NCBI GenBank assembly: GCA_903960515.1
Contig: CAJCBL010000023.1
Span: 7,909-71,908, forward strand
From: an uncultured Verrucomicrobiota bacterium
Lineage (GTDB): Bacteria > Verrucomicrobiota > Verrucomicrobiia > Opitutales > Opitutaceae
Length of the DNA: 64,000 bases
Reading direction: 5' to 3'
The notes beneath the pieces were generated by a model. The model did no database searches, had not been told where the DNA came from, and saw only the letters and a list, made by a program, of their open reading frames with translations. The position numbers and the translations under genes were made by a program. The stretch's first letter is position 1. Each line of letters begins with the position of its first letter. Positions 373 to 33,216 of the stretch are shown in pieces.

Positions 373-437
373 AGCTCGCCTACCGGCTAGGGCCCTTGGG
401 CCCTCAGGGGCGGCCACGCCGCCCCCGAGCCCGGAAC

Positions 438-543
438 AAGGCAATCGTACCGCGTGCGCTCTGGCAGTGCACGAACTCTGGGGGCAGCCGTAGCAGGAGC
501 GTGCTTGCACGCGATCTGCGCCCTTAAGCGCGTGCAAGCACCC
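438..543 (+). repeat. composite palindromic (REP/MITE-like) element, copy 1, forward, truncated stem
   Basis: Stem GTGCTTGCACGCG (501-513) pairs with CGCGTGCAAGCAC (529-541). The upstream module GCGCTCTGGCAGTGCACGAACT (456-477) is shared with copy 5. It sits between convergent genes. Confidence 0.8.
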
Positions 544-569
544 ATCTGGCAAAACCCAAGCTGTCCGCC

Positions 570-6567: not shown

Positions 6568-6912
6568 AGGCGAAAGGAGTTTTCGGGATCAACCATCATG
6601 GGGACGTTTCGGAGACAGCTAATCGTCGCCTTTCCTGCCCAACTTGAGGGTAAAATTCCAAGGCATGGTTTCGAAGCCTTCCAGTCGGCCCGGGCCGTGA
6701 GGAAGCAAGCTGCCCGGGGGGCTGTATCAGCATCGCGTGAGGCACACCGAATCGGCCCTTCGCACACCGCGCTCCTTGCCCCACCGCAGGGCGCAGCATC
6801 GCGCCGGTTGCCCGACTCAGAACACTGCACGCGCTCCGCTTTGCGACCGTGCCCGCACTCGGGTGACGGCAGAACGAGGTTACCTGCACACGATCTCTGA
6901 TGCCCATCGGTG

Positions 6913-6963
6913 GCAGCGTGCTTGCACGCGATCCGCCCTCTGAATCGCGTGCAAGCACGCTCC
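6913..6963 (+). repeat. palindromic REP-like element, copy 2 (core hairpin only)
   Basis: AGCGTGCTTGCACGCGAT (6915-6932) pairs with ATCGCGTGCAAGCACGCT (6944-6961) around the loop CCGCCCTCTGA. It lies just 3' of kdsB. Confidence 0.85.
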
Positions 6964-6983
6964 CACAACTGAACTGGCGCGCT

Positions 6984-7733
6984 TCAGGCCCCGCCCAGCA
7001 AACGCTCGAACTTCACCGCATCCTCCGGGGTATCCACTCCTACGCTCGGATCGGCGGTGAGCCCCACAGCGATCGCCGCGCCGCTCTCCAGTGCCCGCAG
7101 TTGTTCCAGTTTCTCGATCTGCTCCAGGCGGCCCGGCGGCAGCTTCGTGAAACGTTCCAGGAACTCAGCGTGGTAGGCATAGAGCCCGAGATGTTTGTAA
7201 CAGGGGTGGGCCGCGAGCCAGGCGTCGTCGACCACTCCGGAGCGGTCTCGGGCGAAAGGCATCGGCGAGCGGGAAAAGTACAACGCACGGCCAGCGTCGC
7301 TCAGGACCACCTTCACCTGGTTGGGATTGGCGAAATCCTCCGCGCGCTGAAACCGGGTGGCCAACGTGGCCAGCGGTGCCTCGCCTCGGATCAGGTCGGC
7401 GAGCGCCTGTAACTGCGCGCGGCTCACCAACGGCTCATCGGCCTGCACGTTGATCACCCGCCTCGCGCCCACGCTGCGATTGGCCTCCGCTAGCCGGTCG
7501 GTGCCGCTTTGATGGCACACCGAGGTGGCGATCGTCCGAAAACCGTGAGGCTCCAACACTGCGGCCAACAGCGGATCGTCCACGGCGAAAAACAGCGGCA
7601 GTTCAGGCATCTCTTGCCTGATACGTTCGGCCACCCAGCGCAGCAGCGGTTTGCCCCGGATGGGGTGCAGCAGCTTGCGGGGGAAACGCGTGGATTCGAG
7701 ACGGCAGGGGACGATGATCGCGAGCTCGTTCAT
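6984..7733 (-). CDS. kdsB: 3-deoxy-manno-octulosonate cytidylyltransferase (CMP-Kdo synthetase)
   Basis: Internal ATG at 7733 (MNELAIIVPCRLESTRFPRKLL). The sequence is KdsB-like throughout (VINVQADEP, YKHLGLYAY). Confidence 0.9.
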   Translation of the reverse strand: MNELAIIVPCRLESTRFPRKLLHPIRGKPLLRWVAERIRQEMPELPLFFAVDDPLLAAVLEPHGFRTIATSVCHQSGTDRLAEANRSVGARRVINVQADEPLVSRAQLQALADLIRGEAPLATLATRFQRAEDFANPNQVKVVLSDAGRALYFSRSPMPFARDRSGVVDDAWLAAHPCYKHLGLYAYHAEFLERFTKLPPGRLEQIEKLEQLRALESGAAIAVGLTADPSVGVDTPEDAVKFERLLGGA

Positions 7734-7819: not shown

Positions 7820-8116
7820 ATGGAAAACACCGAATCCTCCGCTGCCATACAGCACATCAAAGTGCTGACCGTGCAGAACAAGATGGGCATCCACGCCCGT
7901 CCGGCGGCGATGATTGTGCGCATCACCAACAAGTTCAAAGCCGATGTGCTGGTGGAGCGAGACGAGGAGCAGGTGAACGGCAAGAGCATCATGGGTCTGA
8001 TGATGCTCGCGGCAGGCCGCGGCTCGTCGCTCAAGTTCATCGTCACCGGCAACGACGGCCCCGGGATGATCGCCGAGCTCGAAGCGCTCTTCTCCCGCAA
8101 GTTCGACGAGGTCTGA
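7820..8116 (+). CDS. ptsH: HPr phosphocarrier protein
   Basis: 98 aa. The His-15 site is GIHARPAA and the Ser-46 regulatory site is VNGKSIMGLM. ATG at 7820. Confidence 0.9.
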   Translation: MENTESSAAIQHIKVLTVQNKMGIHARPAAMIVRITNKFKADVLVERDEEQVNGKSIMGLMMLAAGRGSSLKFIVTGNDGPGMIAELEALFSRKFDEV

Positions 8117-8117
8117 G

Positions 8118-8258
8118 CGGTAACCATTCAATGGCAGGAGCGTGCTTCCACGCGATTCAGAGCGCAGATCGCGTGCAAGCACGCTTCTGCTACGGCTGAC
8201 ACTGGAATTCGGGCACGGTTCGAGAGCAAAGCGGTGCCGCTTCATGGTTACGGCTGAA
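8118..8258 (-). repeat. composite palindromic element, copy 3, reverse orientation
   Basis: Core GGAGCGTGCTTCCACGCGAT (8137-8156), loop TCAGAGCGCAG, then ATCGCGTGCAAGCACGCTTC (8168-8187). The loop is the reverse complement of the copy-4 loop. The CATGGTTACGGCT module at 8243-8255 faces the downstream gene. Confidence 0.85.
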
Positions 8259-8295
8259 GTTTGCGGATTGTCGTCAGCTCACAGGCGCTGCTGCC

Positions 8296-10782
8296 TTGCG
8301 GGGGGTGGCAACTTCAGATCCAGCAACGGCAGCCTATACGATTCGCGCAAGACTTGCCTCCCTCGAGGTCGAGCGGCTGCGGCTGGAAGATGAGCTTCGT
8401 GCGCTGGAGGATGCCCGGCGAGGGCTGCTGCCCTTGTCGCCAGAATCCTCGGCCTCGGGAGTCCTTCAACCCGCCGAGAAGGTAGCCCTCTTTCTCTCGC
8501 TGTTCGGCGCCCGCCGCTCGGTGTATCCCAAGCTATGGGAGAACCCGAAGGCCGGGAAGAAGGGGTACTCACCGGCCTGCGAGAACGAGTGGCGGCGCGG
8601 CGTCTGCGCGAAGCCGAAGGTGAAATGCTCCGAATGCCGTCACCAGAAGTTTCCGCCGCTTGATGCGAGCGCAGTCGAGGCCCACCTGCGAGGCGCGCAC
8701 ACAGTAGGCACCTACGCGATACGAGAGGACGACTCCTGCATCTTCCTCGCCGCCGACTTCGACGAAGATGGCTGGTGGGAGGAGGCGCAGGCCTATGGGC
8801 AGGTGGCGGCCAACGCGCTGGTTCCCGTAGCACTTGAGCGTTCGCGCTCTGGCAACGGCGCCCACGCGTGGACCTTCTTTGCCGAGCCGGTGCCGGCCGT
8901 GCTCGCCCGCCGCCTCGCCACCATCCTGCTGGCCAAGACCTCCGCGGCGCGACCGTCGATGAGCCTGCGTGCGTACGACCGGCTGTTCCCCAATCAGGAC
9001 ACGATGCCGGCAGGGGGCTTCGGCAACCTCATCGCGCTCCCGCTGGCCAAGGTACCGCGGCAGCAAGGCAACACCGTATTCATAGACGAGCAACGCCGGC
9101 CCTACGCCGACCAATGGGCGTATCTCGCCTCGCTCCGCCGCCTGCCCCGCGACGAACTCGACCGACTGCTGGAGCGGCTCGCCCCTCCCGCCCCCATCAG
9201 CACACCAGCGGCGGACGCGGGCGCCGCCTTCTCGCTGGAGAGCGACGAACGAGCGCTCGACCTGTCGTGCCCTAAAATCCCCACCTCAGCGATCCAAGGA
9301 GAGGTGACACTGCGGCTCGATGCCGCCGTCCACATCCCGCGCACGACCCTGCCCCCGGCGCTCCTCGCAAACCTCAAACGCCTGGCGACCTTCGCCAACC
9401 CTGTATTCTACGAGAAGCAGCGGCTGCGTTTCCCAACCTACGATACGCCCCGATTCCTCTTCGCCGGGGAATGGCACCCGGACCGCCTCGTACTGCCGCG
9501 CGGCGTCCTGGAGGAGGCGCAACGCCTCATCGAGGACGCCGGTGCAACCGTGATAATCCATGACTCCCGCCCCGTAGCCCGGCGCATCCGATGGACCTTC
9601 AGCGGCCAACTGCGGCCGGAACAGGAGCTCGCGGTGCGGGAGATGATGAAGCACGAGCGCGGAGTGCTCGCCGCTCCGCCCGGCGCGGGGAAGACAGTCA
9701 TGGGCTGCGCCCTGATCGCCCGGCACCGCACCGCCACGCTGGTCCTGGTGCACCGCGCGGTGCTCCTCGACCAGTGGCGCCAGGAGGCGACAAGTCTCCT
9801 CGGTCTCAAAAAGAAGGATATCGGCGTCTGGCGCGGAAAGACCACCACACGCACCGGCCGCCTGGATATCGCGATGCTGCCCAGCCTCGCCCGCCACGAG
9901 AACCCTGCTGAGGTTTTCGCCCAATACGGGTTGGTCATCGTGGACGAGTGCCACCACGTGCCCGCGGTTTCGTTCGAGGCCTTGCTGAAGGCCTGCACCT
10001 GCCGGCACATCGTGGGCCTCACCGCCACGCCCCAGCGCAAGGACGGGCTGGAGCGCTTGATGCACCTGCAGTGCGGCCCTCTCCGGCACAGCCTCGCCGA
10101 GACGAGGGAAGAAGCGGTACCGCGAGTCGTATTCGTCCGGAAGAGCTCGTTTCAAGTGGAGCCCAATCTGGGTCCGAAGCCTCCGCTCCATGAGGTCTGG
10201 CAGGCCTTGGTCGAGGACCCCGGACGCACAGAGCAGATCGCCTCCGATATCTGGAGCAGCATGAGCGAAGGGCGCAGCCCGCTGGTGCTCTCGGACCGCA
10301 AAGCCCACTTGGAAAAGATCGAAGCAGCGGTCGGCCGGCTACGAGGGGCAGCCGAGGTGTCCGTATTCCGGTTTTCGAGCAGCGATGGGGTGAAACGCCG
10401 GCGCGAAATCCGAGCGGAGCTCGAGGCTCGCGCAGCCGAGGGCAGCCGCTTCGTAATCTTCGCCACGGCCGCGTTGGTCGGAGAGGGCTTCGACCTGCCC
10501 CGGCTCGACACCCTGTTTCTCGCCATGCCGCTCTCGTTCAAGGGTCGGCTAATCCAATACGCCGGCAGGCTGCACCGAGCCCATGCCGACAAAACGGAGA
10601 TCCGAGTCTACGACTACCTCGACGAGAACCACCCCATCACCCTCGCGATGTTCCGCCGCCGCGCCGCGGCCTACCGGCAGATGGGGTACCGGTTTGCCAT
10701 CGACGAGAGCATCGGCGGCGCCGCGCTCCGCGGGCAGCAAGGTCTTTTCGAGGACAGCGTCTCCGCTCCGGATAGACACTAG
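8296..10782 (+). CDS. archaeo-eukaryotic primase (AEP/Prim-Pol)-like domain fused to an SF2 DExH helicase
   Basis: There is no ATG near the 5' end; the start is TTG 8296 or GTG 8305. Motifs: coiled coil aa 20-45; Cys cluster C-x8-C-x6-C-x2-C-x-H aa 94-116; FLAADFD aa 150-156; SRSGNGAHAW aa 183-192. Helicase motifs: PPGAGKT aa 461-467, VDECHH aa 549-554, GLTATP aa 574-579 and QYAGRLHR aa 754-761. Confidence 0.8.
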   Translation: MRGVATSDPATAAYTIRARLASLEVERLRLEDELRALEDARRGLLPLSPESSASGVLQPAEKVALFLSLFGARRSVYPKLWENPKAGKKGYSPACENEWRRGVCAKPKVKCSECRHQKFPPLDASAVEAHLRGAHTVGTYAIREDDSCIFLAADFDEDGWWEEAQAYGQVAANALVPVALERSRSGNGAHAWTFFAEPVPAVLARRLATILLAKTSAARPSMSLRAYDRLFPNQDTMPAGGFGNLIALPLAKVPRQQGNTVFIDEQRRPYADQWAYLASLRRLPRDELDRLLERLAPPAPISTPAADAGAAFSLESDERALDLSCPKIPTSAIQGEVTLRLDAAVHIPRTTLPPALLANLKRLATFANPVFYEKQRLRFPTYDTPRFLFAGEWHPDRLVLPRGVLEEAQRLIEDAGATVIIHDSRPVARRIRWTFSGQLRPEQELAVREMMKHERGVLAAPPGAGKTVMGCALIARHRTATLVLVHRAVLLDQWRQEATSLLGLKKKDIGVWRGKTTTRTGRLDIAMLPSLARHENPAEVFAQYGLVIVDECHHVPAVSFEALLKACTCRHIVGLTATPQRKDGLERLMHLQCGPLRHSLAETREEAVPRVVFVRKSSFQVEPNLGPKPPLHEVWQALVEDPGRTEQIASDIWSSMSEGRSPLVLSDRKAHLEKIEAAVGRLRGAAEVSVFRFSSSDGVKRRREIRAELEARAAEGSRFVIFATAALVGEGFDLPRLDTLFLAMPLSFKGRLIQYAGRLHRAHADKTEIRVYDYLDENHPITLAMFRRRAAAYRQMGYRFAIDESIGGAALRGQQGLFEDSVSAPDRH

Positions 10783-10799
10783 GGCCGCCGGCAACAACG

Positions 10800-10920
10800 C
10801 AGTCGTAGCCATGCAATCGTGCTGCTTTGCGTCTCCCACAGTGCACAAACTTGTCCGCCGTAGGAGCGTGCTCGCGCGCGATCTGCGCTCTGAATCGCGT
10901 GCAAGCACGCTCCTACGGCT
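10800..10920 (+). repeat. composite palindromic element, copy 4, forward (best copy)
   Basis: 25-nt arms CCGTAGGAGCGTGCTCGCGCGCGAT (10858-10882) and ATCGCGTGCAAGCACGCTCCTACGG (10894-10918) with 2 mismatches, loop CTGCGCTCTGA. The TCGTAGCCATGCAATC module at 10803-10818 faces the upstream gene. Confidence 0.9.
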
Positions 10921-11343
10921 CTCAAGAAACAACTGTCTCTTCCCGTCCGGGGCAAAACCCGTTTTGCGGTGGAGGCCGGATGGTAACGGCTCTGTCGCGC
11001 GGCCGCCAAAGGGCTCATCCCCCAGTTGCACCGCCATCCACGCCGACTCCCGCCTCGGCGGCGCGCACATGCCCTCCCCCACGCTCGGATATGTCCCCAA
11101 AACCGGCACCCACGACGAGCATGTGAACGAACCGCAGGGGGGAGCTAGGGCGCGAAACCCGGAAAAGTTTCCCTCCCGCCACAATTGCGGCTTCCATTGC
11201 TCCACTGTGCACCCCACAGTTTGAGAGCCCGTCGACTGATCGCGGTTCAATCCTCCACGCCCCTCACGCGTGACGGGGCTGGACTTCGCCCGGCAGTCGG
11301 GCACGTTCCGCCGCCCATGACGGCGGTACACCGATAGCCCACC

Positions 11344-12780
11344 ATGTCCCAACCTCTCATCATCCAAGGCGGCATGGGCGTCGCCGTTTCCAACTGGCGG
11401 CTCGCCCGTTCCGTAGCGCAGCTCGGCCAACTCGGTGTCATCTCAGGCACTTTGCTGGCGGTTGTCTTTGCGCGTCGCCTGCAAGCGGGCGACCCCGAGG
11501 GGCACATGGCCGATGCGATGGTCCATTTCCCCCTGCCCACAATCGCAGAGCGGGTACGCGCAAACTACTTTGTTGCGGGCGGCAAACCGGCCGGCGCCCC
11601 GTTCAAGGCCGTGGCAATGCCGGGGGTGAACCTGAGCCAATCCCTCAACGAGCTCACCGTCCTGGCCAACTTCGCCGAGATCCACCTCGCCAAGCAGGGG
11701 CACTCCAATCCGGTCGGTATCAACCTGCTGGAGAAGATTCAGGTCGCCACCCTCGCCTCGCTTTACGGAGCGATGCTCGCCGGGGTTGACTACGTGCTCA
11801 TGGGCGCGGGCATCCCGCGGGAAATTCCCGGAGTGCTTGATCGCTTCGCAGCCGGCGAGGCCGCCGAGATCGGTATCGATGTCCTCGGGGCCGCCGCCGG
11901 CACCAAGACCATCGCACGCTTCGATCCCTCCGTACTTTTCAACGGCCCTGCTCCCAAGCTGCGCCGTCCCCAGTTCCTGGCCATAGTCTCCTCGGCCACT
12001 CTCGCAATCACCCTCGCCAAGAAATCCACCGGCCGGGTGGACGGTTTCATCGTCGAAGGCGACGTGGCCGGCGGGCACAATGCCCCGCCCCGAGGGCAGC
12101 TTCAGCTCAGCGCCATCGGCGAACCCGTCTACGGCCCGCGCGATATCCCCGACCTGCCCAAGATTGCGTCCATCGGCCTGCCCTTCTGGCTGGCCGGCGC
12201 CTACGCCGACCCGGCCAAGATCGCCGAAGCCCGTGCGCTGGGTGCCACCGGAGTGCAGATCGGCACCGCCTTCGCCTTCTGCGAAGAGTCGGCCGTGCGT
12301 CCCGACCTCAAGCGCCAGGTCTGCCGCCTCGCCCTCGCCGGTAAGGCCGGTGTGTATACCGATCCGCTCGCCTCGCCCACCGGGTTCCCCTTCAAGGTGC
12401 TCCAGGTCGAGGGTTCGCTCTCGGCCGAGAACGTCTATGGCGCCCGCCCGCGTGTCTGCGATCTCGGGTACCTCCGCGACCCCTACGCCCGTGCCGACGG
12501 CTCGGTCGGATACCGCTGCGCCGCCGAACCCGCCGAGGACTACGTCCGCAAGCTGGGCGAAGCCCCGGCGCTGGCCGGCCGCAAATGCCTCTGCAACGGC
12601 CTGCTCGCCACCGCTGGCTTGGGCCAAAGCCGCGCCGATGGCACCGTGGAGCCTCCGATCCTCACCGCAGGCAACGACGTGGCCCTACTGGCCCGCTTCA
12701 TACCCGCCGGCGCAGAAAGTTACACGGCAGCCGACGTCATACGTTTCCTCCTCGGCGAGATTCCCCAGGCCACCGCCTGA
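11344..12780 (+). CDS. nitronate monooxygenase / 2-nitropropane dioxygenase family flavoprotein (long form)
   Basis: MSQPLIIQGGMGVAVSNWRLARSVAQLGQLGVISGT is the typical NMO N-terminus. Also present are GFIVEGDVAGGHN and GATGVQIGTAF motifs. Confidence 0.8.
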   Translation: MSQPLIIQGGMGVAVSNWRLARSVAQLGQLGVISGTLLAVVFARRLQAGDPEGHMADAMVHFPLPTIAERVRANYFVAGGKPAGAPFKAVAMPGVNLSQSLNELTVLANFAEIHLAKQGHSNPVGINLLEKIQVATLASLYGAMLAGVDYVLMGAGIPREIPGVLDRFAAGEAAEIGIDVLGAAAGTKTIARFDPSVLFNGPAPKLRRPQFLAIVSSATLAITLAKKSTGRVDGFIVEGDVAGGHNAPPRGQLQLSAIGEPVYGPRDIPDLPKIASIGLPFWLAGAYADPAKIAEARALGATGVQIGTAFAFCEESAVRPDLKRQVCRLALAGKAGVYTDPLASPTGFPFKVLQVEGSLSAENVYGARPRVCDLGYLRDPYARADGSVGYRCAAEPAEDYVRKLGEAPALAGRKCLCNGLLATAGLGQSRADGTVEPPILTAGNDVALLARFIPAGAESYTAADVIRFLLGEIPQATA

Positions 12781-13103
12781 CCTTCCGCTTCCCGGCCCGG
12801 ATCGCCCCGGTAGAGCAAACAGGACATGGGCCGCCTCGCCCTTGAGCGAGCGGCCCACCCATCAAGAGCTCAACCCGCAAGGGTTACCCCGAGCGGCACA
12901 ACAGCCTCTGAGCAACAAGCATCGCGTAGTAGGACACATGCACCAGATCCAGTCCAAGATCGACTGGGACATCGCAGGTGCTGTGGTCACTGGATCAAAG
13001 ATTACGTGAAACCCTGATCGTCCCCGACTGTCAAGATTCCGACAGACTTCGCGCTTCCGTTCCGCCCTGCCGCCGGTAGCGTCGAACAAACTCCACCCCG
13101 CCC

Positions 13104-14138
13104 ATGCCGAAAGCCGTCACCGCCGTCTCCGTCGCAGATTTCTTCGCCAAGTACGGCGAGAAACTGAAGGCCGAGCTCATCGCCGGCAGCGAGGGCGTGC
13201 ATCGGCAGATCCGCGAGCCGAGCATCAACCGGCCGGCCCTCGCCCTCACCGGGTTCTACAAGTATTTCGCCTACAAACGCGTCCAGGTCATCGGTTCCAC
13301 GGAGATGACCTACTTCAAGACCCTCACGCCACTGCGGCAGGCGGAGATGATGCATGCGATGATCGATCGCGGTATCCCCTGTCTGGTGCTCACGCGCAAC
13401 CTGCTGCCGCCCAAGCCCATGCTCACCGTCGCGCGCGAGCGGAAACTGCCGCTCTACCGCACGCCGCTGATCACGATGCATTTCGTCAACATCGCGACCC
13501 TGTGCATCGACGCGGAGTTCGCACGGCAGACCACCGAACACGGCACCGCACTGAGCATTGAGGGCGTGGGCGTCATGATCCGCGGACACAGCGGGGTGGG
13601 CAAGAGCGAGGCCGCCCTGGCCATCATCGAGCGCGGGCACAGCCTGGTGGCCGACGACCTCACCCACCTGCGTGTGCTCGACGAGCGCGAGCTCATCGCC
13701 TCCAGCCTGGCGCTAAACCGCGGGTACATGGAGTGCCGGGGCATCGGCATCATCAACGTGGCCGAGATGTTCGGCGTGCGCAGCGTGCGCCCCGAGGTGC
13801 GGCTCGACATGGTGGTTACACTTCAGGACTGGCGCCCCGACGTGGAGGAGGAGCGCACGGGGTTGGAGGAGAATTTCTACCACATCCTCGGCATCCGGGT
13901 GCCCCACATCGAAATCCATGTTCGGCCCGGCCGCGACATCGCCCGCCTGGTCGAGGTAGCCGCTCTCGTGCAGGCCCTCAAGAAGATGGGCAAGGATCCG
14001 GCCAAGGAATTCAACGAGCGGCTGATCGCCTTCATGAGCAACCAGCATCCGATCACCGGCGACACTGAGGAGGATGAGGAGGACGCGGAGAAGGATCAGG
14101 CAGCCGCCGAGCCCGAGCAGGCCGGCAACGCCACCTGA
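13104..14138 (+). CDS. hprK: HPr kinase/phosphorylase
   Basis: HGTALSIEGVGVMIRGHSGVGKSEAALAIIERGHSLVADD (Walker A) and ECRGIGIINV. The C-terminal tail is unusually acidic (TEEDEEDAEKDQAAAEPEQ). Confidence 0.9.
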   Translation: MPKAVTAVSVADFFAKYGEKLKAELIAGSEGVHRQIREPSINRPALALTGFYKYFAYKRVQVIGSTEMTYFKTLTPLRQAEMMHAMIDRGIPCLVLTRNLLPPKPMLTVARERKLPLYRTPLITMHFVNIATLCIDAEFARQTTEHGTALSIEGVGVMIRGHSGVGKSEAALAIIERGHSLVADDLTHLRVLDERELIASSLALNRGYMECRGIGIINVAEMFGVRSVRPEVRLDMVVTLQDWRPDVEEERTGLEENFYHILGIRVPHIEIHVRPGRDIARLVEVAALVQALKKMGKDPAKEFNERLIAFMSNQHPITGDTEEDEEDAEKDQAAAEPEQAGNAT

Positions 14139-14313
14139 AGCATAGCCCGGGGGCTCCACGGCGCTTCAGTGGAGGCGCGGTGGCAAGGTGCGCCCCCTAC
14201 AGCCTGTTCCCTGTCGGGTCCAAGTTGAGACGAAGGCCGAGTCCGTGCGGGTGCGTGCTTGCACGAGCGGCCTCCTCTCGAGAGCGATTGGGAATCAACT
14301 GCCTGGGTACGGC

Positions 14314-14997
14314 TCAGGCGAACAGCTCCAGCAGGCGCCGGAACAAATCGTTGACCTTCTCCTGGTTCGCTCGCACCAGCGCGGCGAACCCCTCCGGCGA
14401 GAGCACCGTGCCCAGGATACCGTTGGCATAGTTGTCCACCATGCACAGCGAGTTGTAGTTGAGCCCGATCTCGCGGCAAAGGTCCGCCTCGCAGGCGGCC
14501 GTCATGCCCACCACATCGCCCCATTGGCGGAGAATGCGCACCTCCGCACGAGTCTCAAAGCGGGGCCCAGGAGTCTGGACGTACACCTTACCAACAGGAA
14601 GCGGATACGGCAGGGCGGCGGCAATCTTCCCGATGAGGTTGTTGGCGATTTCCGGGCCCAGGGCACGCAGCTCGGTGTCGGAAAACGTGGCCGGTCGAAA
14701 GCTCACGTAGTCGTCGCACGAAACCACGGTGCCGGGCGCAAGCTCCAGCTGTAGCGATCCCACCGAGTTGAGCGCCACGACATCGCGAAACCCCAGGTCG
14801 GCCAGCGCCTGGATATTGGCGCGATGGTTGATCGCGTGGGGCGGCAGGTAGGCGGGGCCATGTCGGTTGAGCAGAAGATGCTCGCCTCGGCTGCGCACGA
14901 TGGCCGTGCCATGACAGGTCCCTACCTCGCGCTCCTGCCAGCCCTCGAAGAGCGAGGAGTGGGCGATGCTGGTCCCGCTGAGGAAGGCGATTTTCAT
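14314..14997 (-). CDS. purine nucleoside / 5'-methylthioadenosine phosphorylase family protein
   Basis: MKIAFLSGTS...LNRHG...PHAINHRANIQALADLGFRDVVALNSVGSL and GPRFETRAEV are PNP/MTAP family motifs. Confidence 0.8.
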   Translation of the reverse strand: MKIAFLSGTSIAHSSLFEGWQEREVGTCHGTAIVRSRGEHLLLNRHGPAYLPPHAINHRANIQALADLGFRDVVALNSVGSLQLELAPGTVVSCDDYVSFRPATFSDTELRALGPEIANNLIGKIAAALPYPLPVGKVYVQTPGPRFETRAEVRILRQWGDVVGMTAACEADLCREIGLNYNSLCMVDNYANGILGTVLSPEGFAALVRANQEKVNDLFRRLLELFA

Positions 14998-20442: not shown

Positions 20443-21168
20443 ATGGCCGAACCCACCGTCTATCCCGTACCGCGCATCAAAGACCTGGCCGTGGGCGAAC
20501 GCCCACAGGAGCGACAGGAGCGCTCCGGCCCCGAGGCGCTCACCGACACCGAGCAACTCGCGATGATCCTGCGCAGCGGCAGCTCCGGGAGGAACGTAAA
20601 ATGCATCGCCCAGGATCTGCTCGCGGCCGCCGGCGGCAACCTCGCCGGCCTGCTCCCATGGTCGGCCTCCGACTTCCGCCGGATAAAGGGCATCGGCCGG
20701 GTGAAGGCCCAGCAACTCGTCAGCGTTCTGGAGATCTCGCGACGCATGCTGGAACAGCGCGAGGCGCTCCCGCCCCTGCTGGAGCGCCCCGACCAGGTGC
20801 TCGCCCACTTCCAGGGTGAAGTGCTGCGCCTCGACGTGGAGAAATTCTGGGTACTCAGCCTCAACCGCAAGAACCGCCTGCTGCGCCGCGACGAGATCAC
20901 CTCAGGCACCGCCACCAACAGTCTGGTACACCCGCGCGAGGTCTTTCGCGAGGCGATCAAGGCGGGCGCCTGCTCGATCATCGCCGTGCACAACCACCCC
21001 AGCGGCGACCCCGCCCCCAGCAACGCCGACCTGCAGGTGACCCGCCAGCTCCGGGAGGCCGCTCGCACCGTGGAGATCGGCCTGCTCGACCACGTAATCC
21101 TGGGCAGGCCCGGGGCCGATCCGTCCGGCCGCGGCTACTACAGCTTCCGCGAAGCCGGCCTGCTCTGA
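20443..21168 (+). CDS. radC: RadC-family JAB/MPN domain protein
   Basis: The JAMM-like motif AVHNHPSGDPAPSNADLQVT follows an N-terminal HhH-like region (ELLAIL-type: EQLAMILRSG). Confidence 0.85.
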   Translation: MAEPTVYPVPRIKDLAVGERPQERQERSGPEALTDTEQLAMILRSGSSGRNVKCIAQDLLAAAGGNLAGLLPWSASDFRRIKGIGRVKAQQLVSVLEISRRMLEQREALPPLLERPDQVLAHFQGEVLRLDVEKFWVLSLNRKNRLLRRDEITSGTATNSLVHPREVFREAIKAGACSIIAVHNHPSGDPAPSNADLQVTRQLREAARTVEIGLLDHVILGRPGADPSGRGYYSFREAGLL

Positions 21169-21238
21169 GTCGTGGCCATTCCGGCGCAGGAGCGTGCCTG
21201 CACGCTGCCCAGGGCGAAAACCGAGCTCCTGCAGGCGC

Positions 21239-22291
21239 CTACGGCCGGCGCCACACCGCCCGGCTCGTACGCGCGGTGCCCACACCCAACTGCTCACAGA
21301 AGTCCAGCAAACGGCGGTCGTCGCCAAGCAGCGGCCGGAAACCGGCGTGTTTGCGCTCGGCGTTGAGCCGCTCGATCATCAGCGCATCCAGAAGCACAGG
21401 ATCGGCGCCCAGCCACAGCCGACGCTCGCTGGCGGTGTAGAGCGAGTTGAACAGAGGCCCTCCGATGAACTGGTAGCACTCGAGGCTCACGATCGTCAGC
21501 CGCCAGCTCTCGCGCAGTTCCGGGATGGCCGCCATCTCGGCCACCGCGGCCGGGGCGTTGGCCGGGCTGTTGAAGAAGCGCTGGGTGTTGCTGGCGTTCC
21601 AGAGCGTGGCGTTGACCAGCGCCCCGTTGATACCGAGCACGGGATGGTCGCTGTACACCGGCAGGTTGATCCAGAAATCCGCCTCAAGAAACAGCGGCGT
21701 GGCCAGAAAACTTTTACGGTCGGCGGAGACCGCCCCCGGCCGCCCCTCCTCGTCGTCGGCCTTGCGCTCGAGCACCGCTGGGGCGAAACGCGCGGGCAGC
21801 GGGCTGTCGTAGAACCACTGCGAATCGTAGAAGCGCCCGGATTCCAGCACGAAGACCGGGTGCTCGGCGAAGCTGTTGCCGCCCTTGCTCAACGCGGGCA
21901 GGAAGCCGGTGGCGCGCAGGCGCACCTGGCTCAGCCCGACCAAGAAAATCTGGTTGGGCGCGAAACCGCGCCGCTCCAGCGCGGCGATCACCGCCAGCAC
22001 CAGGGTGGGAGGCGTGCTCAGCCCGGCGCCCGAGTCGGTGTAGATCTTCAACCCCACCCGCCGGCGCGCGCCCGGCAGCAGCGGCCGCCCGGTCTGCGTC
22101 TCGTAGTCGGAAACCAAGCGCTCGACGGCGGCGCTGTAGCTCGCCTGGCCGAAGTCGGGCAACGCCGCCTCCCATACCACCGGCGAGGGCGGCGGCGGCG
22201 CAGCGGGCTCAACGGCGGCCGAAGCGGTATTCGCGGCGACGAGCCACGGCAAAAACGACCAGTACAAGCGCAGCGGCCAAAGGCTTCTCAT
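21239..22291 (-). CDS. secreted hypothetical protein (DUF362-like)
   Basis: Signal-like N-terminus. RVGLKIYTDSGAGLSTPPTLVLAVIAALERRGF resembles the DUF362 N-terminal pattern. The function call is weak. Confidence 0.55.
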   Translation of the reverse strand: MRSLWPLRLYWSFLPWLVAANTASAAVEPAAPPPPSPVVWEAALPDFGQASYSAAVERLVSDYETQTGRPLLPGARRRVGLKIYTDSGAGLSTPPTLVLAVIAALERRGFAPNQIFLVGLSQVRLRATGFLPALSKGGNSFAEHPVFVLESGRFYDSQWFYDSPLPARFAPAVLERKADDEEGRPGAVSADRKSFLATPLFLEADFWINLPVYSDHPVLGINGALVNATLWNASNTQRFFNSPANAPAAVAEMAAIPELRESWRLTIVSLECYQFIGGPLFNSLYTASERRLWLGADPVLLDALMIERLNAERKHAGFRPLLGDDRRLLDFCEQLGVGTARTSRAVWRRP

Positions 22292-27737: not shown

Positions 27738-27970
27738 AGGCGGGCACAAGTTGGCCAGCCAAAATCACCGAGCGGTAACGATTCGGCCCGGCGGGGAAGG
27801 TGAACCGAATATACACAGCTCCTTGTTCATCATTCAGTCCGCTATTCGGCGGTAGGACACTGGGCCGCACCGGCTCGATCGTATACTCTCCGCCGGCAGC
27901 GCGCGCCCTACACCACCTCGCTTCGAAGAGGATGCAGAGCAGCCGGCTCGGGTTATCGCATGATCGCGGC

Positions 27971-28666
27971 TCAGACAAAAAGACCGTCGCGCATCGGGCG
28001 AATAATATCGCAGCGTTTGGCTATATCGGGGTTGTGCGTGACGAGCACCACCGCCTGCTCATTGTCTCTCGCGAGCTTGCACAGAAGGTCGAACACCAGC
28101 CCGGAGTTGGCCTGGTCGAGATTGCCGGTGGGTTCGTCAGCAAGAATGATAGAGGGCGCATTGGCCAGCGCCCGTGCTATCGCCACGCGCTGCTGCTCAC
28201 CGCCGGAGAGTTGCGTGGCCAGACGCTTGGATTTGTCCCCTAGCCCAACGTCGGTCAGCAATTGCTGGGCACGCGCCGCCATGTGGTCCGGGCTGAGGCG
28301 GCCGAGCTTGCGCATCGGCATCATCACGTTTTCCAACGCGCTGAATTCCGGTAGCAGGAAGTGGAACTGGAATACAAAGCCGACGTGTTCGCATCGCACT
28401 GCCGTGCGGGCGGCGTCATCGGCTTGACTCATCTGGTTGCCGTTGATCCAAATATCTCCTTGTTCGGCGCGATCCAGCAGGCCGAGGAGATACAGCAAAG
28501 TGCTCTTGCCGCAGCCTGAAGGCCCTACGATGGCACAAACCTTACCCCGTTCAGCTTCGAAGCCGACCCCGCGCAATACATGCACCCGGCCTTCGCCAGA
28601 GCCGAGATAGCGGTGTACGCCATTGCAGGAAAGTGCGAGGTCTCGGGGAGTGGAGGGGTTGCTCAT
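27971..28666 (-). CDS. ABC transporter ATP-binding protein (MacB/LolD/DevA-type)
   Basis: Walker A GPSGCGKST, signature LSGGEQQR, Walker B ILADEPTGNLD. ATGA overlap with the permease gene. Confidence 0.9.
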   Translation of the reverse strand: MSNPSTPRDLALSCNGVHRYLGSGEGRVHVLRGVGFEAERGKVCAIVGPSGCGKSTLLYLLGLLDRAEQGDIWINGNQMSQADDAARTAVRCEHVGFVFQFHFLLPEFSALENVMMPMRKLGRLSPDHMAARAQQLLTDVGLGDKSKRLATQLSGGEQQRVAIARALANAPSIILADEPTGNLDQANSGLVFDLLCKLARDNEQAVVLVTHNPDIAKRCDIIRPMRDGLFV

Positions 28667-29901
28667 TGCGAAGTCCCTCGGATAACGTCACCCGGTTCAA
28701 GACGGGCGGCGCGGCGCGCAGGGATAAGGCTGGCCATCATCACCACCACCGTAGCCGTGGCGGCAGCGAATACATAGTGCCAGATCGACCAGGCTACAAC
28801 AAAGCTGTCGGTCGAAAATATACCGCGGATGCGGATAGGCAGTCGGGATACGCCATAAGTGATGGCGGCGCCGAAGATCCAGCCCAAGACAACACCTATG
28901 ATCAGTACGATGGCGCCCTGCCAGAGGAAAATACGGGCGATATCCTGCCGAGTATAACCCATCGAGCGCAAGATGGCTATCTCCTTGGTCTTCTCCATAA
29001 CAATCATGGCCAAGGTATTAAACATGCCAAGCCCGGAAATAAGGATCAGGGTGGAAACAGTGAGGGCGGATGAAACGCGCAGCGCCCGGAACACCTCAAG
29101 CCAGGTCTTCTCGCGTGCCTGCCAAGACTTGACCGAATGCCCCAAGGTACGCTCCATATGAGCGGCGTCAGCCGGAGCGCGATCGCGATCGGCGATCGCC
29201 ACCTGCAGGAATGAGGCACCGCTGGGCTTTTGCAGCAGGGATCGGGTTTCCTGCATGTGCATGTACATGCGCTGCCGATCAATATCGCTCACACCGGTCT
29301 CAAAAATCGCAGAAACACGGTAATTGCGCATCTGGTTGGAGGCCTCCAGGGTAATCGACTCGCCCACATTTACCCCTAGGCGGCTGGCCAAAACCCGGCC
29401 CACGAGAAGCCCGCTGGGGTTGATCTTAAAGTCGTTGAGATGGCCGAATACGATCTGCTGTCCCAGATCGGACACCCGCAACTGATCGTCTATATTTATA
29501 CCGAAAACCCGGGCCGAATCGCTTTGGCTGCCCCGGCGCACAAGCACCGCCCCCGTAAGCACCTCAGCGATTCCGGTGACGTTGCCGAACTGGTTGACCG
29601 CCTGCCGCAACTTCTCGGGTTCGGTGATGCCCTCTACGTATTTCACACTGTCGCGATGTTCAAAGTCGAAAGCGGAACCGTCGGAAGACATCGAACTGAG
29701 GGTATCCTGGATGCGATCCTCAATGCGAATAGCCCCGTTGGTCCCAAGAATGGTCTTGATGAAAAACTCCTCGAAACCGCTGGTCTGCGCCTGGGTGACG
29801 ATGAAGAAACCCACGCCAAACACAATGCCTGCGAGGCTCATCAACATGGAGCGCCGCTTGGCTGTGAGGAACCGCAGCGCGATACGGATGTTCGGTGACA
29901 T
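28663..29901 (-). CDS. ABC transporter permease, FtsX/MacB-type
   Basis: TM1, a large periplasmic domain, then three C-terminal TMs. Contains KEIAILRSMGYTRQDI, the FtsX-family pattern. Confidence 0.85.
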   Translation of the reverse strand: MSPNIRIALRFLTAKRRSMLMSLAGIVFGVGFFIVTQAQTSGFEEFFIKTILGTNGAIRIEDRIQDTLSSMSSDGSAFDFEHRDSVKYVEGITEPEKLRQAVNQFGNVTGIAEVLTGAVLVRRGSQSDSARVFGINIDDQLRVSDLGQQIVFGHLNDFKINPSGLLVGRVLASRLGVNVGESITLEASNQMRNYRVSAIFETGVSDIDRQRMYMHMQETRSLLQKPSGASFLQVAIADRDRAPADAAHMERTLGHSVKSWQAREKTWLEVFRALRVSSALTVSTLILISGLGMFNTLAMIVMEKTKEIAILRSMGYTRQDIARIFLWQGAIVLIIGVVLGWIFGAAITYGVSRLPIRIRGIFSTDSFVVAWSIWHYVFAAATATVVVMMASLIPARRAARLEPGDVIRGTSQ

Positions 29902-29915
29902 CAGGCGTGGTAGGG

Positions 29916-31037
29916 TTAGGAGCCCTTGTCGGTTTTTACCTCGGCAACCGACACTCGATCTCCCACACGAAACCGATCGAGATCCTCAACGATAACAGCG
30001 TCGCCAGCTTCGAGACCACGCATAATTTCCACAGAATTGAGACTGGTGAAGCCCACCTCGACGGTCTTCAGTTCCACACGGCCATCCTTCACCAGAAAAA
30101 CACTGCGGCCAAACAAGGCCCGCCGGGGAATGATCACCGCATTGTCCCGAGCATCCACTACAATATTAACCTCACCGGTGATGCCGGGCACCAACAGCTT
30201 GGGATCGATCTCCACGGACAGGTGGACCATATAACGCTGGGTGAGCGGGTCGGCAGCGGGAAGGATCTTCTCCACTCGCGCGGAGTACTGTGTGGCACCG
30301 TAACTTAGAAAGCGTAGCGTGGCGTGCTGCCCGATCTTCAAACCGGCGAAATTTTCCTCGCTGATCCTCGCCTCGATCACGCGACTGTCGGCGATGATGG
30401 TGGCCACCGGTTCACCAGTCGAAATCAAATCGCCAACATTGGTAAATACTGCGGAGATGACTCCCTCCACAGGCGAGCGAAGCGTCATCTTGCTGCGACT
30501 GCGGTTAGCCACCTTCAAATCGTTCTCGATCCTCGCCAACTGCTGAGCGTTGGCAACATTCTCAAGTTCCAATTTCTGCTCGATCTGTTTCACCACGCGC
30601 CGCTGCCGCTCCAGATCAACGGCTGTCACTGTGCCCTGCTTGGCCAAGCGATCCGCAGTCTCCAATTGGTCATTGGCATTTTGAAGCTCAAACTGAGTGG
30701 CCGACCCGATCTGGATACGCTTCTGTATCGTCGAGCGATCATTCTCCAATTGATCGATTTGCAGGTTCAGATCGGTCTGGTCGAGTTCGATCAGCACACC
30801 GCCGGCAGCCACCTTCGAACTCAGTTCGAGATTGCTGCTGACAATGCGCCCGCCCACATCGCTTTTGACCTGTAGCGCGCGCTCGGCCAACACCGTGATG
30901 GACCCGGGAACCGCATTGATCGCACGGTCTCGCTTGGCCAGCACCACGATGGCTTGGGGGCGCATCATCTGCACCCCAAGCCAAGCAGCCACGGCGATCA
31001 ACACCAGAACTCCAGCCAACTTCAACTTGTAGGACAT
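29916..31037 (-). CDS. efflux periplasmic adaptor (HlyD/MFP family)
   Basis: Internal ATG at 31037 (MSYKLKLAGVLVLIAV). Lipoyl, coiled-coil and beta-barrel pattern, including SPVEGVI. Confidence 0.85.
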   Translation of the reverse strand: MSYKLKLAGVLVLIAVAAWLGVQMMRPQAIVVLAKRDRAINAVPGSITVLAERALQVKSDVGGRIVSSNLELSSKVAAGGVLIELDQTDLNLQIDQLENDRSTIQKRIQIGSATQFELQNANDQLETADRLAKQGTVTAVDLERQRRVVKQIEQKLELENVANAQQLARIENDLKVANRSRSKMTLRSPVEGVISAVFTNVGDLISTGEPVATIIADSRVIEARISEENFAGLKIGQHATLRFLSYGATQYSARVEKILPAADPLTQRYMVHLSVEIDPKLLVPGITGEVNIVVDARDNAVIIPRRALFGRSVFLVKDGRVELKTVEVGFTSLNSVEIMRGLEAGDAVIVEDLDRFRVGDRVSVAEVKTDKGS

Positions 31038-31050
31038 CGAAAGATAAGAA

Positions 31051-32409
31051 TTAGTGCTGCTGGACACCGACACGGGCCACAGGATCCGCACCCTTGGAAG
31101 AAAGATACTCTACGACAGCGCTAAGATGAGCCGCCAGCGCCGCTTGAGCGTAATATTGATGGGAAAACACATTGCCTTGGGCTGCGTCGATCTGCTCCTG
31201 TGACACCAAGCCACGGCCGGCCTCCTCACGCTGGTGGGTCAAGCCTTCGCTAGCCATGCGCAAATGCATCTTCGCCACCTGATAGGAATCCCAAGTGAAG
31301 CCCACATTGTCGCTCGCGCGGGCCAACTTTCGGGCGACCACCAGCCGCGAGCTCACCAATTTCTGCTCAGCACGGCGCAGTCGGGTAAGCGCCGCGAGCC
31401 GCTGGCCCTTAGAGCTCAAGCCGTCGAACAAATTCCAGTTCACCACAGTGCCGATAAAGGCTGTGTCGGCTTGGTATCTATAGGTACCCTTATCCTGGGG
31501 TTGAGTATACTGATCGCGACTGATGCCGGCAGTCAGTCCCAATTTCGGATAAAGCGCGTAGCGGGGACCAACGCGTGCGAGCTTGGCCTTCTCCACCTCC
31601 ATCTCGACTATCTTCACTTCAGCGGAATCGTCGATCGCGGAACTGGCCACCACGGGAGCCACCGCTGGCGCTTCCGTAATATCGCCTATCGCCTCGGGTA
31701 TCTCTGCCTCAGTGAGCGCCACGTCGCCGCACATTGAACGGAAACTATCCAGGAGAAACACCAGATCGGCCTTCGCCCGGCGCATCGCCAAGGAAGCCTC
31801 GTCCACCCGCAGTTGGTGGGTCATGATCTCGCCATAGGTCACCTGGTTTGCGCTATATCGCGCCTGCTGACGTGCGAGGTTTCCCTGCGCCAGACGAAAG
31901 GTGAGCTCGGCGTTGCGCACCACCATTTTGTTCAGAACCAAACCGAGATAGGCTGAGCGAACTTCGCCCGCCAATACCCGAAAGGCCTCTGAGTAATTCT
32001 TCTTCGCCAAGTCCCGATCAATTCGGGAGATCTTGCGAGTCGCCTCCAACGCACCCCATTGCCAGACTGACTGGTTGATGGAGAAGTTGTAGCCCAGTTT
32101 GTCTTTGTTATTCCAACCGGTGCCATCGATAAGCTTCTCCTTCTGGAGCTGATACTGCGCATACCCGCCTACGGACGGCAGGCTGGAGGAGCGGGCCACG
32201 TAGCCATCGGCTTCAGCCAGCACAAGATCGAGATTGCGCTCCAAGACCTTGGGCGACTGCTGCATTGCGCGCTCAAGTAGCGGTTTCAGTTGGGGCAGAA
32301 CATCTTCCGGCAACTGTACCTTCTCGTCCACGCCGCCGGCAGCGCAAGCCCCGGTGGTCGCCAAGGTAATCAGGACTGTGGATAGGAGGCTCGCGATCGA
32401 TTGCTTCAT
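31051..32409 (-). CDS. TolC-family outer-membrane efflux protein
   Basis: Internal ATG at 32409 with a signal peptide (MKQSIASLLSTVLITLATTGACAAG). Two tandem alpha-helical/beta repeats typical of OEP. Confidence 0.85.
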   Translation of the reverse strand: MKQSIASLLSTVLITLATTGACAAGGVDEKVQLPEDVLPQLKPLLERAMQQSPKVLERNLDLVLAEADGYVARSSSLPSVGGYAQYQLQKEKLIDGTGWNNKDKLGYNFSINQSVWQWGALEATRKISRIDRDLAKKNYSEAFRVLAGEVRSAYLGLVLNKMVVRNAELTFRLAQGNLARQQARYSANQVTYGEIMTHQLRVDEASLAMRRAKADLVFLLDSFRSMCGDVALTEAEIPEAIGDITEAPAVAPVVASSAIDDSAEVKIVEMEVEKAKLARVGPRYALYPKLGLTAGISRDQYTQPQDKGTYRYQADTAFIGTVVNWNLFDGLSSKGQRLAALTRLRRAEQKLVSSRLVVARKLARASDNVGFTWDSYQVAKMHLRMASEGLTHQREEAGRGLVSQEQIDAAQGNVFSHQYYAQAALAAHLSAVVEYLSSKGADPVARVGVQQH

Positions 32410-32589
32410 CGGGTTTGCTGGTTTGTCCGGCCAAACACCAAGCCACCCTTTGGCAGTGATAGCCGAACGGAAATTCCGTCGAGATGTAAGGGTCACCGGA
32501 GACGGGTCAAACACAAAATTTTGCGCCGCCAGAGCGCTTGGGCGCGGGGATCGCAAGATTTCAGTTCCTTAACCGTACCCATTCTCAGT

Positions 32590-32715
32590 CGCAGGAGCGT
32601 GCTTGCACGCGATTCAGAGCGCAGATGGCGTGCTAGCACGCTCCTTCGGCGGGCACCGGAGTTCGTGCACTGCCAGAGCGCAAGGCCGTAGGATTGCATG
32701 GTTACGGCTTAGGTG
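32590..32715 (-). repeat. composite palindromic element, copy 5, reverse orientation
   Basis: Core GGAGCGTGCTTGCACGCGAT (32594-32613), loop TCAGAGCGCAG, then ATGGCGTGCTAGCACGCTCC (32625-32644). Downstream modules GGAGTTCGTGCACTGCCAGAGCGC and GCATGGTTACGGCT match the other copies. Confidence 0.85.
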
Positions 32716-32996
32716 TCGCGCACCTGAGGTGGGCGAATCGTGAGGGTCCGAACTCGGTGAGTAGCGCCGTCCCTCTCCCTGCCGGGCTTCAATGCCAGTG
32801 GCCCCCGAATCAGGCGAAGGAACGTCCATACCAGCGAATGCCCCGCCTGCACCACTCTCACTGAACTCACATGGCTCAATATATGGGGCAGAAATGCAAC
32901 TAACCAAATGTAACAAATCGCGGCCAGTTTCGTGGCCGAATTGCCCCGTCCCTAGCAGCAGAGTCGGCGGTCCCGTTCTCTCGTTATCAAGAGCAC

Positions 32997-33216
32997 AATC
33001 GACCTGTCCCTTATCGGGGCTTTCGACCTGTCCCTTATCGGGGCTCGCCTGGGCGGCCCCGCCCGCGTGGTACGCGGCGCACCTGAACGCAGCGCCAGTG
33101 CCTATATATCCACCAGGAAGCGAGATCCCTGTGTCCTAGAGTGCAAAATCGACCTGTCCCCTATTCGGAGCAGAATCTCCCTCGGAGACCATAATCGACC
33201 TGTCCCTTATCGGGGC
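32997..33216 (+). repeat. four direct copies of a 22-24-bp motif (iteron-like array)
   Basis: (A)ATCGACCTGTCCCTTATCGGGGC at 32997-33020, 33023-33044 and 33193-33216, plus a variant AATCGACCTGTCCCCTATTCGGAGC at 33147-33171. Confidence 0.85.

Follow-up and report, generated by a model that had tools for sequence, protein, structure and literature searches.

REP sequences typically carry a GTAG- or GTGG-like 5′ head, and REPINs usually owe their movement to a RAYT tyrosine transposase. Correia elements of Neisseria belong to the bacterial MITEs that have inverted ends and duplicate their target, and a DDE transposase is the usual mover of elements that combine inverted ends with a TNA duplication; such a duplication is reminiscent of some IS5-family and Harbinger-type elements. 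REPINs have been defined as hairpin-forming REP doublets (Bertels & Rainey, PMC3116915, PMC3337134), and the hosts in these studies were Pseudomonas, Stenotrophomonas and Enterobacteria. MITE-flanked composites are known as well: PMC6382973 cites class 1 integrons of Acinetobacter that lie between identical MITEs. [quoted passage not shown] (2022), as cited in PMC12458937.

Here we analysed a 64-kb window (the whole stretch of DNA under study) in which a primase-helicase gene lies between two copies, c3 and c4, of one composite repeat (Table 1). The initial annotation had proposed that this arrangement may be a gene cassette, which if true would mean that a defence gene can move in the absence of a resident transposase. 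Our analysis indicates that c3 and c4 probably arose independently, as old members of a dispersed family of ~138-bp non-autonomous elements, and that the symmetry of the bracket is likely a by-product.

Table 1. Positions of the repeat copies and of the neighbouring genes in the window.
Feature	Position	Strand	Remarks
c1, full length, degenerate ends	431..569	-	Abuts TGA stop (570-572) of Band_7 gene
c2, hairpin and partial spacer	6888..6983	-	Abuts TGA stop (6984-6986) of kdsB
ptsH (HPr)	7820..8116	+	Pfam PTS-HPr, E=3e-25; stop TGA 8114-8116
c3, complete 138-bp element	8117..8254	+	Left end 8117-8127, right end 8244-8254
c3 REP doublet hairpin	8134-8190		Loop 8157-8167; then 53-nt spacer
Conserved leader, ~50 nt	8256..8304	+	Probable promoter or 5′UTR; aligns upstream of homologues
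AEP-TOTE primase-polymerase fused to XPB/Rad25-like SF2 helicase	8305..10782	+	825 aa, GTG start
c4, atypical 189-bp element	10802..10990	-	Inner end 10802-10812, outer end 10980-10990
c4 REP doublet	10850-10926		Loop 10883-10893
MBL-fold pseudogene remnant, last ~30 codons	11036..11134	+	tblastn vs intact L005 gene (5554-7572): 69% identity, E=4e-7
NMO-family gene	11344..12780	+	Followed by hprK, 13104-14138
c7, degenerate, one end and half a REP	14225..14313	-	Abuts TGA stop (14314-14316) of PNP_UDP_1 gene
c5, degenerate	21169..21250	+	Abuts TGA stop (21166-21168) of radC
c6, complete, 137 bp	32572..32708	+	Direct TTA 32569-32571 / 32709-32711; divergent intergenic region

The window contains at least seven copies of the repeat, four of them full and at least three partial. 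A single hairpin arm matched 13 times in the window against 0.65 expected, and the terminal module 7 times against 0.64. Both c3 and c4 have a REPIN-like double-REP hairpin enclosed by a private pair of 11-nt terminal inverted repeats (GCCGTAACCAT); in the hairpin, two inverted REP units (GTAGGAGCGTGCTTGCACGCGAT) are joined by an 11-nt asymmetric loop, and a spacer of ~50 nt follows it. The ends of c3, GCGGTAACCAT and GCCGTAACCAT, match at 10 of 11 positions, and those of c6 at 9 of 11. When folded as a single unit with its ends paired, c3 reaches -70.1 kcal/mol (z=-5.8); the hairpin alone, with 91% complementarity between its arms (8134-8156 and 8168-8190), accounts for -42.1 kcal/mol (z=-7.9). 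Across ten copies and species, 8 of 25 hairpin pairs were changed on both sides while 90.8% of cells remained paired, and none of 500 shuffles was as good. Solo hairpins occur in related species (L008, L015, L089 and L090). A metagenome scan with an over-stringent pattern, in which neither arm could deviate, returned two contigs (L089 and L090) with the hairpin only, and a search of a plasmid collection gave no match to the element. Rfam reported no family at gathering threshold in the whole window and only chance-level matches at the repeats. No DDE-type or RAYT transposase was found, and no transposase domain was present among the ~35 ORFs scanned, within one 72-kb contig of the genome. The repeats resemble small mobile elements of a non-autonomous kind.

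Five copies (c1, c2, c3, c5 and c7) start exactly at a TGA stop codon and in the orientation of their gene, and the left flank conforms to TNA in 8 of 10 cases, against a background of 2.4%. The c3 copy is enclosed by direct repeats, TGA at 8114-8116 and TGA at 8255-8257. The left of these is native: relatives devoid of the element have it as the stop codon of ptsH, whose end (...GAGGTCTGA) is identical there. In both c3 (TGA/TGA) and c6 (TTA/TTA) the middle base matches a direct rather than an inverted repeat, and a tail-to-head junction of the form end-TAA-end was located at 62913-62938. Clean target-site duplications were restricted to c3 and c6, with none in c4 or c1, so that the mode of transposition is deduced from a small sample. 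These features suggest that insertion of the element takes place at T-N-A, with duplication of the triplet. With a TGA or TAA stop as the target, the stop codon would be regenerated, insertions there would be tolerated and copies would come to lie directly after genes. In this manner c3 would have landed, alone, on the ptsH stop codon. Homology to the relatives extends 3 nt beyond that stop (GCG, 8117-8119), and the left boundary of c3 could thus be 3 nt off.

The gene was confirmed to lie between inverted copies of a single composite repeat: over 60 nt, positions 8136-8195 are 88% complementary to 10855-10914 as an inverted pair, and blastn aligned 8136-8256 with 10914-10800 over 122 nt at 77% identity. 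The loops, TCAGAGCGCAG (8157-8167) and CTGCGCTCTGA (10883-10893), are exact reverse complements, as had been reported. The AGCCGTA(A/G)CCATG module described as facing the gene is present on both sides (CATGGTTACGGCT, 8243-8255; AGTCGTAGCCATG, 10801-10813), with one extra mismatch to this pattern in c4. We also found modules on the outer sides (GCGGTAACCAT at 8117-8127 in c3; the reverse complement of GCCGTTACCAT at 10980-10990 in c4). The layout previously given as hairpin-module-[gene]-module-hairpin is therefore amended to module-hairpin-module-[gene]-module-hairpin-module, and the length of c4 from ~120 bp to 189 bp.

The REP-doublet stem of c4 is as long as that of c3, and 59 nt separate its hairpin from its outer end, compared with 8-10 nt in c3 and c6. 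It is reversed relative to the primase-helicase gene, begins 19 nt past the TAG stop and is flanked by GCA and TCT, hence no duplication exists at c4. The two bracketing copies are 77% alike, which lies within the range of the whole family (75-82%) and is no closer than their likeness to c1 or c6. The alternative raised in the initial annotation, that both copies are simply 3′-end REP hairpins of ptsH and of the helicase gene, fits c3 but not c4, given its reversed orientation and its start 19 nt after the stop. We regard c4 as probably a separate, atypical copy.

We then considered how often such a bracket should arise. Modelling 6-8 copies among 48-56 intergenic regions gave a probability of 0.45-0.75 for at least one single-gene bracket in the window and of 0.24-0.47 for at least one inverted bracket; a binomial estimate counting only the ~30 intergenic regions outside the dcw operon was ~0.8. 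The bracket is not above chance at the present copy density. As an internal control, the core kdsB-ptsH pair likewise lies inside an inverted bracket, formed by c2 and c3. Because the element is abundant and usually sits on stop codons, the cassette appearance is most likely coincidence, and the hairpin-module-gene-module-hairpin symmetry would simply reflect how many copies there are in the loosely packed half of the region. More generally, single genes enclosed by inverted repeat pairs should turn up in any setting in which REP- or MITE-type elements are frequent.

The enclosed gene is well defined. Its start, first placed at 8296, was corrected to the GTG at 8305, where the ATG codons of homologues align and which agrees with the 825-aa JGI gene call. 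The product gave a full-length match to PF22548 (AEP-TOTE; E=4.2e-89) and a match to ResIII (E=3e-24) in Pfam, and the Cas-associated PrimPol model of PADLOC (E=2.5e-79). PDB matches included XPBII and also 7nqf, a chain with a TPR_REGION domain. The DFDED, SGNGAH, GAGKT and DECH motifs were all found. The comparison of GC3 and codon usage with neighbouring genes that had been proposed gave native values (GC3 = 0.81), typical of the window and the host, and a foreign origin by composition was rejected for this gene. A leader (8256-8304) aligns upstream of the 76-82% identical homologues in L086, L085 and L003, all in other genomic contexts, and was not found at the more distant homologues L091, L093 and L004. 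The homology of the leader starts exactly at the c3 edge. The leader travels with the primase-helicase gene and is a probable promoter or 5′UTR.

Homologues of 64-83% identity occur in six other genomic contexts, most of them with toxin-antitoxin, Fic or DUF3800 genes as neighbours. The repeat was not found at any of the six homologue loci with readable DNA (L003, L004, L085, L086, L091 and L093; 64-82% identical), and L092 likewise yielded no copy. Three relatives lack the gene after ptsH. The closest homologue, P0005 (83%), which belongs to the sister species (contigs in ERZ1426818 and ERZ1426660), is accompanied by unexplained gaps of ~890 and ~950 nt on either side, which counts against reading c3 and c4 as independent copies. 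The suggestion that the gene is mobile was upheld insofar as it is accessory and missing after ptsH in relatives; movement by means of the repeats was unsupported, since leader and coding sequence occur elsewhere free of repeats. The evidence shows that mobility of the primase-helicase gene is independent of these repeats. This lone AEP-TOTE primase-helicase gene changes locus between genomes, in surroundings rich in toxin-antitoxin genes, and is an accessory single-gene unit, probably with a role in defence.

A gene cassette with c3 and c4 as its ends is not supported, in view of the private TGA/TGA of c3, the 77% likeness of the copies, the repeat-free homologue loci, the leader that starts at the c3 edge, the similarly bracketed kdsB-ptsH pair and the chance expectation. 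The outer flanks of the bracket, TGA (8114-8116) and TCT (10991-10993), form no target-site duplication. The same cassette was not found at the homologue loci, and none of 80 NMO-containing loci from a genome-contig search had ptsH upstream.

Both flanks of the primase-helicase gene are synteny breakpoints, making a simple comparison of filled and empty sites impossible. The metallo-beta-lactamase (MBL)-fold remnant starts ~45 nt past c4 and marks a deletion or rearrangement breakpoint; homology to L005 begins at 11158. The primase-helicase gene would accordingly sit at a rearrangement junction, where a kdsB-ptsH block meets a truncated MBL-NMO-hprK block. A search of the window for the genes that are neighbours in relatives (PALP, ATPase, Rsm22, radical SAM and aminotransferase) was negative. 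The window also contains no tRNA genes, so the locus is not a tRNA-linked island. Collinearity with relatives stops at 8119, ~11036-11158, 14079, 27965 and 32475, and four of six synteny breakpoints fall within ~150 nt of a copy (P ~0.006). Element copies tend to coincide with breakpoints, a hint that their role is not wholly passive.

This association bears on a minority reading, the "REP-recombined" variant of the initial annotation, in which homologous or illegitimate recombination of dispersed copies joined the ptsH and truncated MBL-NMO blocks, left the gene between two copies and produced c4 as a recombinant of two older copies. The mismatched flanks of c4, its long stretch between hairpin and outer end and its "wrong" orientation would all be accommodated, as would the truncated MBL pseudogene just beyond it and a lone terminal-module-like fragment at 27772-27782. 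We nevertheless consider such a rearrangement unlikely. Breakpoints and repeats both favour long unconstrained intergenic DNA, and their association may therefore be indirect; copies that are 75-82% alike are a poor substrate for RecA; and c3 retains its own intact duplication, which argues that it was not a recombination partner.

It is less probable still, indeed improbable, that the two hairpins were kept as a functional pair, insulating the gene as a terminator or stabiliser for the ptsH and helicase mRNAs or permitting its inversion. The hairpins are very stable, lie right at the gene ends and have kept their structure across species. However, a promoter and terminator scan at both repeats detected nothing (no GC-rich hairpin followed by a T-run), there is no U-tract after either hairpin and no terminator-like site, c4 is opposite in orientation to the five stop-abutting copies, and homologues do without hairpins. 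Two independent assemblies show the same orientation, and thus no sign of inversion. For individual hairpins a present-day role, such as 3′-end RNA stabilisation or attenuation, may still be envisaged.

A true composite transposon of paired MITEs, in which a transposase acting in trans used the outermost ends (8117-8127 and 10980-10990) together to move a 2.9-kb unit, is the least credible of the readings: its outer ends are correctly inverted with at most one mismatch each to the consensus, the Acinetobacter composites provide a precedent and the gene is absent from the corresponding site in relatives, but the unit as a whole is without flanking duplication, c3 has a private one, the copies are not identical as in known cases, no second instance exists with six homologue loci repeat-free, leader and coding sequence are found elsewhere without repeats, and in 80 related loci ptsH and NMO are never neighbours, leaving no simple empty site.

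The gene and the repeat can each be compared with described systems. The N-terminal domain of the primase-helicase strongly matches Pfam AEP-TOTE, linking it to TOTE conflict systems, and the Cas-associated PrimPol model of PADLOC, linking it to CRISPR-associated PrimPol. As in TOTE systems, its homologues have toxin-antitoxin, Abi and Fic genes around them. In contrast to TOTE systems the gene stands alone here, fused to an XPB-like SF2 helicase; its neighbours are ptsH and NMO, with no TPR-OB/CSD, TBP or cas genes beside it, and no TPR-OB/CSD or TBP genes were adjacent to the homologues in the loci checked.

The repeat resembles REPINs and BIMEs in having two inverted REP units in a long hairpin, each unit with a small palindrome of its own about TT or AA (GCGTGC-TT-GCACGC and GCGTGC-AA-GCACGC), in its GTAG/GTGG-like 5′ head and in being extragenic, multicopy and lineage-specific. 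It differs in its loop of just 11 nt, in the absence of a RAYT gene from the window, in its host (Opitutaceae, Verrucomicrobiota) and in the enclosure of the doublet in a 138-bp unit with 11-nt inverted ends and 3-bp TNA repeats, which is not described for REPINs. A REPIN-like family placed exactly at stop codons exists in Opitutaceae. Like MITEs such as MITEAba12 (PMC6382973), the element is ~140 bp long, has no ORF, ends in terminal inverted repeats, makes a short target duplication and occurs between genes, near gene ends, as many diverged copies; unlike them, it has a TNA target that coincides with stop codons and an internal REP doublet. The locus shares with the MITE composites around Acinetobacter class 1 integrons the presence of small-element copies on each side of a cargo gene, but c3 and c4 are only 77% alike, with one private duplication, none for the unit and no second instance. 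A doubtful further possibility, which would be new relative to all of these, is a hybrid non-autonomous element, a REPIN captured in an inverted-end/TNA shell, that would specifically colonise stop codons. Equally doubtful, and separate from this, is that the AEP-TOTE primase-helicase gene and its 50-nt leader form a self-relocating single-gene unit, with the activity of the primase-helicase contributing to its own movement between loci.

The primase-helicase gene is enclosed, as the initial annotation had it, by two inverted copies (c3 and c4) of one composite repeat, with reverse-complementary loops and gene-facing terminal modules. The proposed layout of hairpin-module-gene-module-hairpin holds for these inner modules but missed the outer ones at 8117-8127 and 10980-10990. 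The gene is accessory and lies at a rearranged site, and the feature is an ordinary outcome of the dense, stop-codon-seeking REPIN/MITE-type repeats around it. The observation itself is confirmed, and the interpretation given to it is supported in part only. The window has a GC content of 66% and covers nearly the entire 72-kb metagenomic contig of this Opitutaceae bacterium (Verrucomicrobiota).

Window coordinates of genes, repeat copies and other features
Feature	Position	Strand
kdsB	6984-7733	-
ptsH	7820-8116	+
Repeat copy c3	8117-8254	
Primase-helicase leader	8256-8304	
825-aa primase-helicase	8305-10782	+
Metallo-beta-lactamase-fold (MBL) pseudogene remnant	11036-11134	+
NMO-family gene	11344-12780	+
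hprK	13104-14138	+
Lone terminal-module-like fragment, GCGGTAACGAT	27772-27782	
Efflux operon (OEP/HlyD/FtsX/ABC)	27971-32556	
Repeat copy c6	32572-32708	
24-31-nt motifs, AATCGACCTGTCCCTTATCGGGGC	32990-33216	
38-nt tandem units, CCTTCCCCCGCAGCCGGGCGGCTCAGCCGTTCAGC	34771-34989	
Region without coding signal	61187-63294	
9-nt coding repeats, AAGGCTGCC-type	63457-63537	

Alignment of its copies defined an element of ~138 bp that ends in 11-nt inverted repeats (GCCGTAACCAT). Two inverted REP units (GTAGGAGCGTGCTTGCACGCGAT) make up a hairpin that starts ~8-10 nt inside the left end; both contain a small palindrome of their own (TT-centred in the left arm, AA-centred in the right), and an 11-nt asymmetric loop (TCAGAGCGCAG) joins them. 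A conserved ~50-nt spacer follows, and then the other end. Hairpin-only versions were present in other Opitutaceae contigs (L008, L015, L089 and L090), and the changes in their arms are coordinated, with 8 of 25 pairs altered on both sides and none of 500 shuffles performing as well. Hairpins were few in the ~1 Mb of related loci. The full composite was seen in this genome only, with 4 full and at least 3 partial copies in 64 kb, and pairwise identity within the family ranges from 75 to 82%. The 2.1-kb region without coding signal is crowded with fragments of the family (terminal modules at 62000, 62632 and 62928; half REPs at 61605 and 62843) and contains a second palindromic repeat, CCAGCGTTCTTCGCAGCGAAGAATGCGGG, at 61500 and 62697 (93% complementary). 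The lone terminal-module-like fragment lies ~190 nt from a synteny breakpoint at 27965.

Direct TGA and TTA triplets border c3 and c6, respectively, on both sides, and a tail-to-head junction at 62913-62938 reads end-TAA-end. On the left of c3 the TGA is the native stop codon of ptsH, which relatives without the element also have, so the right TGA is the duplication. TNA forms the left flank in 8 of 10 cases (background 2.4%), and five copies (c1, c2, c3, c5 and c7) start exactly at the TGA that ends the upstream gene, in the orientation of that gene. The element would appear to target TNA, with surviving insertions probably being those that regenerate a stop codon. Copy c4 is the exception: it is reversed, begins 19 nt past the TAG stop of the primase-helicase gene, has mismatched flanks (GCA versus TCT) and places its hairpin 59 nt from the outer end, compared with 8-10 nt in c3 and c6.

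An 870-nt divergent region separating the efflux operon from an amine oxidase gene contains four copies of the AATCGACCTGTCCCTTATCGGGGC motif, which may be regulator binding sites. Five to six diverged 38-nt tandem units lie between two genes and were not detected by Tandem Repeats Finder at its default score. The 9-nt repeats, rich in Lys and Ala codons, lie within a small ORF at the window end.

The primase-helicase combines an AEP-TOTE primase-polymerase domain (PF22548, E=4e-89) with an XPB/Rad25-like SF2 helicase and keeps the catalytic motifs DFDED, SGNGAH, GAGKT and DECH intact. The true start is GTG 8305, the position at which the ATG of homologues aligns; the JGI gene call likewise gives 825 aa. 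A leader of ~50 nt (GAAsTTGCGGrTTGTCG...TGCTGCCTTGC) is conserved 5' of homologues of 76-82% identity, being kept in L086, L085 and L003 despite differing genomic contexts, and was absent 5' of the more distant homologues L091, L093 and L004. Its start is the exact right edge of c3, which argues that the relocating unit is leader plus gene, without the repeats. Homologues of 83, 82, 79, 76, 74, 68 and 64% identity occupy six other contexts, mostly beside toxin-antitoxin, Fic, AbiE or DUF3800 genes; toxin-antitoxin modules (Unstab_antitox, ParE, PhdYeFM, MqsA, AbiEii), Fic or DUF3800 adjoin those in L003, L085, L086, L091, L093 and L004. The homologues in L003 and L091 have the same location, downstream of nuoLMN. 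Neither a repeat copy nor any flanking inverted repeat was found at the six homologue loci with readable DNA.

Synteny, proposed earlier as a check, indicated that the gene is not ancestral here. The order carA-MCP-TonB-kdsB-ptsH is conserved in two relatives (KdsB 88% identical), where a PALP gene lies 3' of ptsH and DNA homology ends at 8119. A Zn_ribbon_9 gene faces ptsH in the closest relative (KdsB 94%), and the samples of that relative contain an 83% homologue of the helicase at a different place. Beyond the other flank, an MBL-fold gene precedes NMO in the closest NMO relative (L005, 91%), intact at L005 5554-7572; its final ~30 codons remain in the window as a pseudogene. The homology break and this remnant together place the gene at a junction produced by rearrangement and deletion. 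The genes for HPr (ptsH) and its kinase (hprK) are merely 5 kb apart (window 7820-14138) and unlinked in the relatives examined, so rearrangement placed two functionally related genes near each other. Four of the six collinearity breakpoints in the window fall within ~150 nt of a repeat copy (P about 0.006). Repeat-assisted rearrangement, with c4 as a possible recombinant, therefore stays a credible minority reading of how the junction was produced.

Ordinary accumulation of repeats explains the bracket better than a mobilised cassette, for which c3 and c4 would be the two ends: the outer flanks do not match (TGA versus TCT), c3 is flanked by a duplication of its own, c3 and c4 are no more alike than the family at large, the six readable homologue loci are repeat-free, and such brackets arise at chance level. 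At this copy density the probability of a single-gene bracket is 0.45-0.75 and that of an inverted one 0.24-0.47, rising when the count excludes the tightly packed dcw operon that fills the right-hand part of the window. The syntenic core pair kdsB-ptsH is likewise bracketed by the inverted pair c2/c3. In an independent assembly from another run (L002, a Logan contig of 1252 nt) both ends of the kdsB-ptsH contig lie exactly inside c2 and c3, the usual effect of a high-copy repeat on short-read assemblies. Codon usage and GC3 of the primase-helicase gene, suggested earlier for comparison with its neighbours, are native.

The double-REP hairpin corresponds to the published REPIN definition (PMC3337134), and the element behaves like a REPIN in its hairpin part and like a MITE as a whole ~138-bp unit. 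No parent transposase, whether RAYT or DDE, turned up among the about 35 ORFs scanned on this contig. In the 825-aa protein the AEP domain is the one that takes its name from TOTE systems (TPR, OB, TBP, Effector, as expanded in PMC12458937), but their partner genes are missing beside it. The bracket does not qualify as a MITE-flanked composite transposon: c3 and c4 are 77% alike, whereas the known cases described in PMC6382973 carry identical copies.
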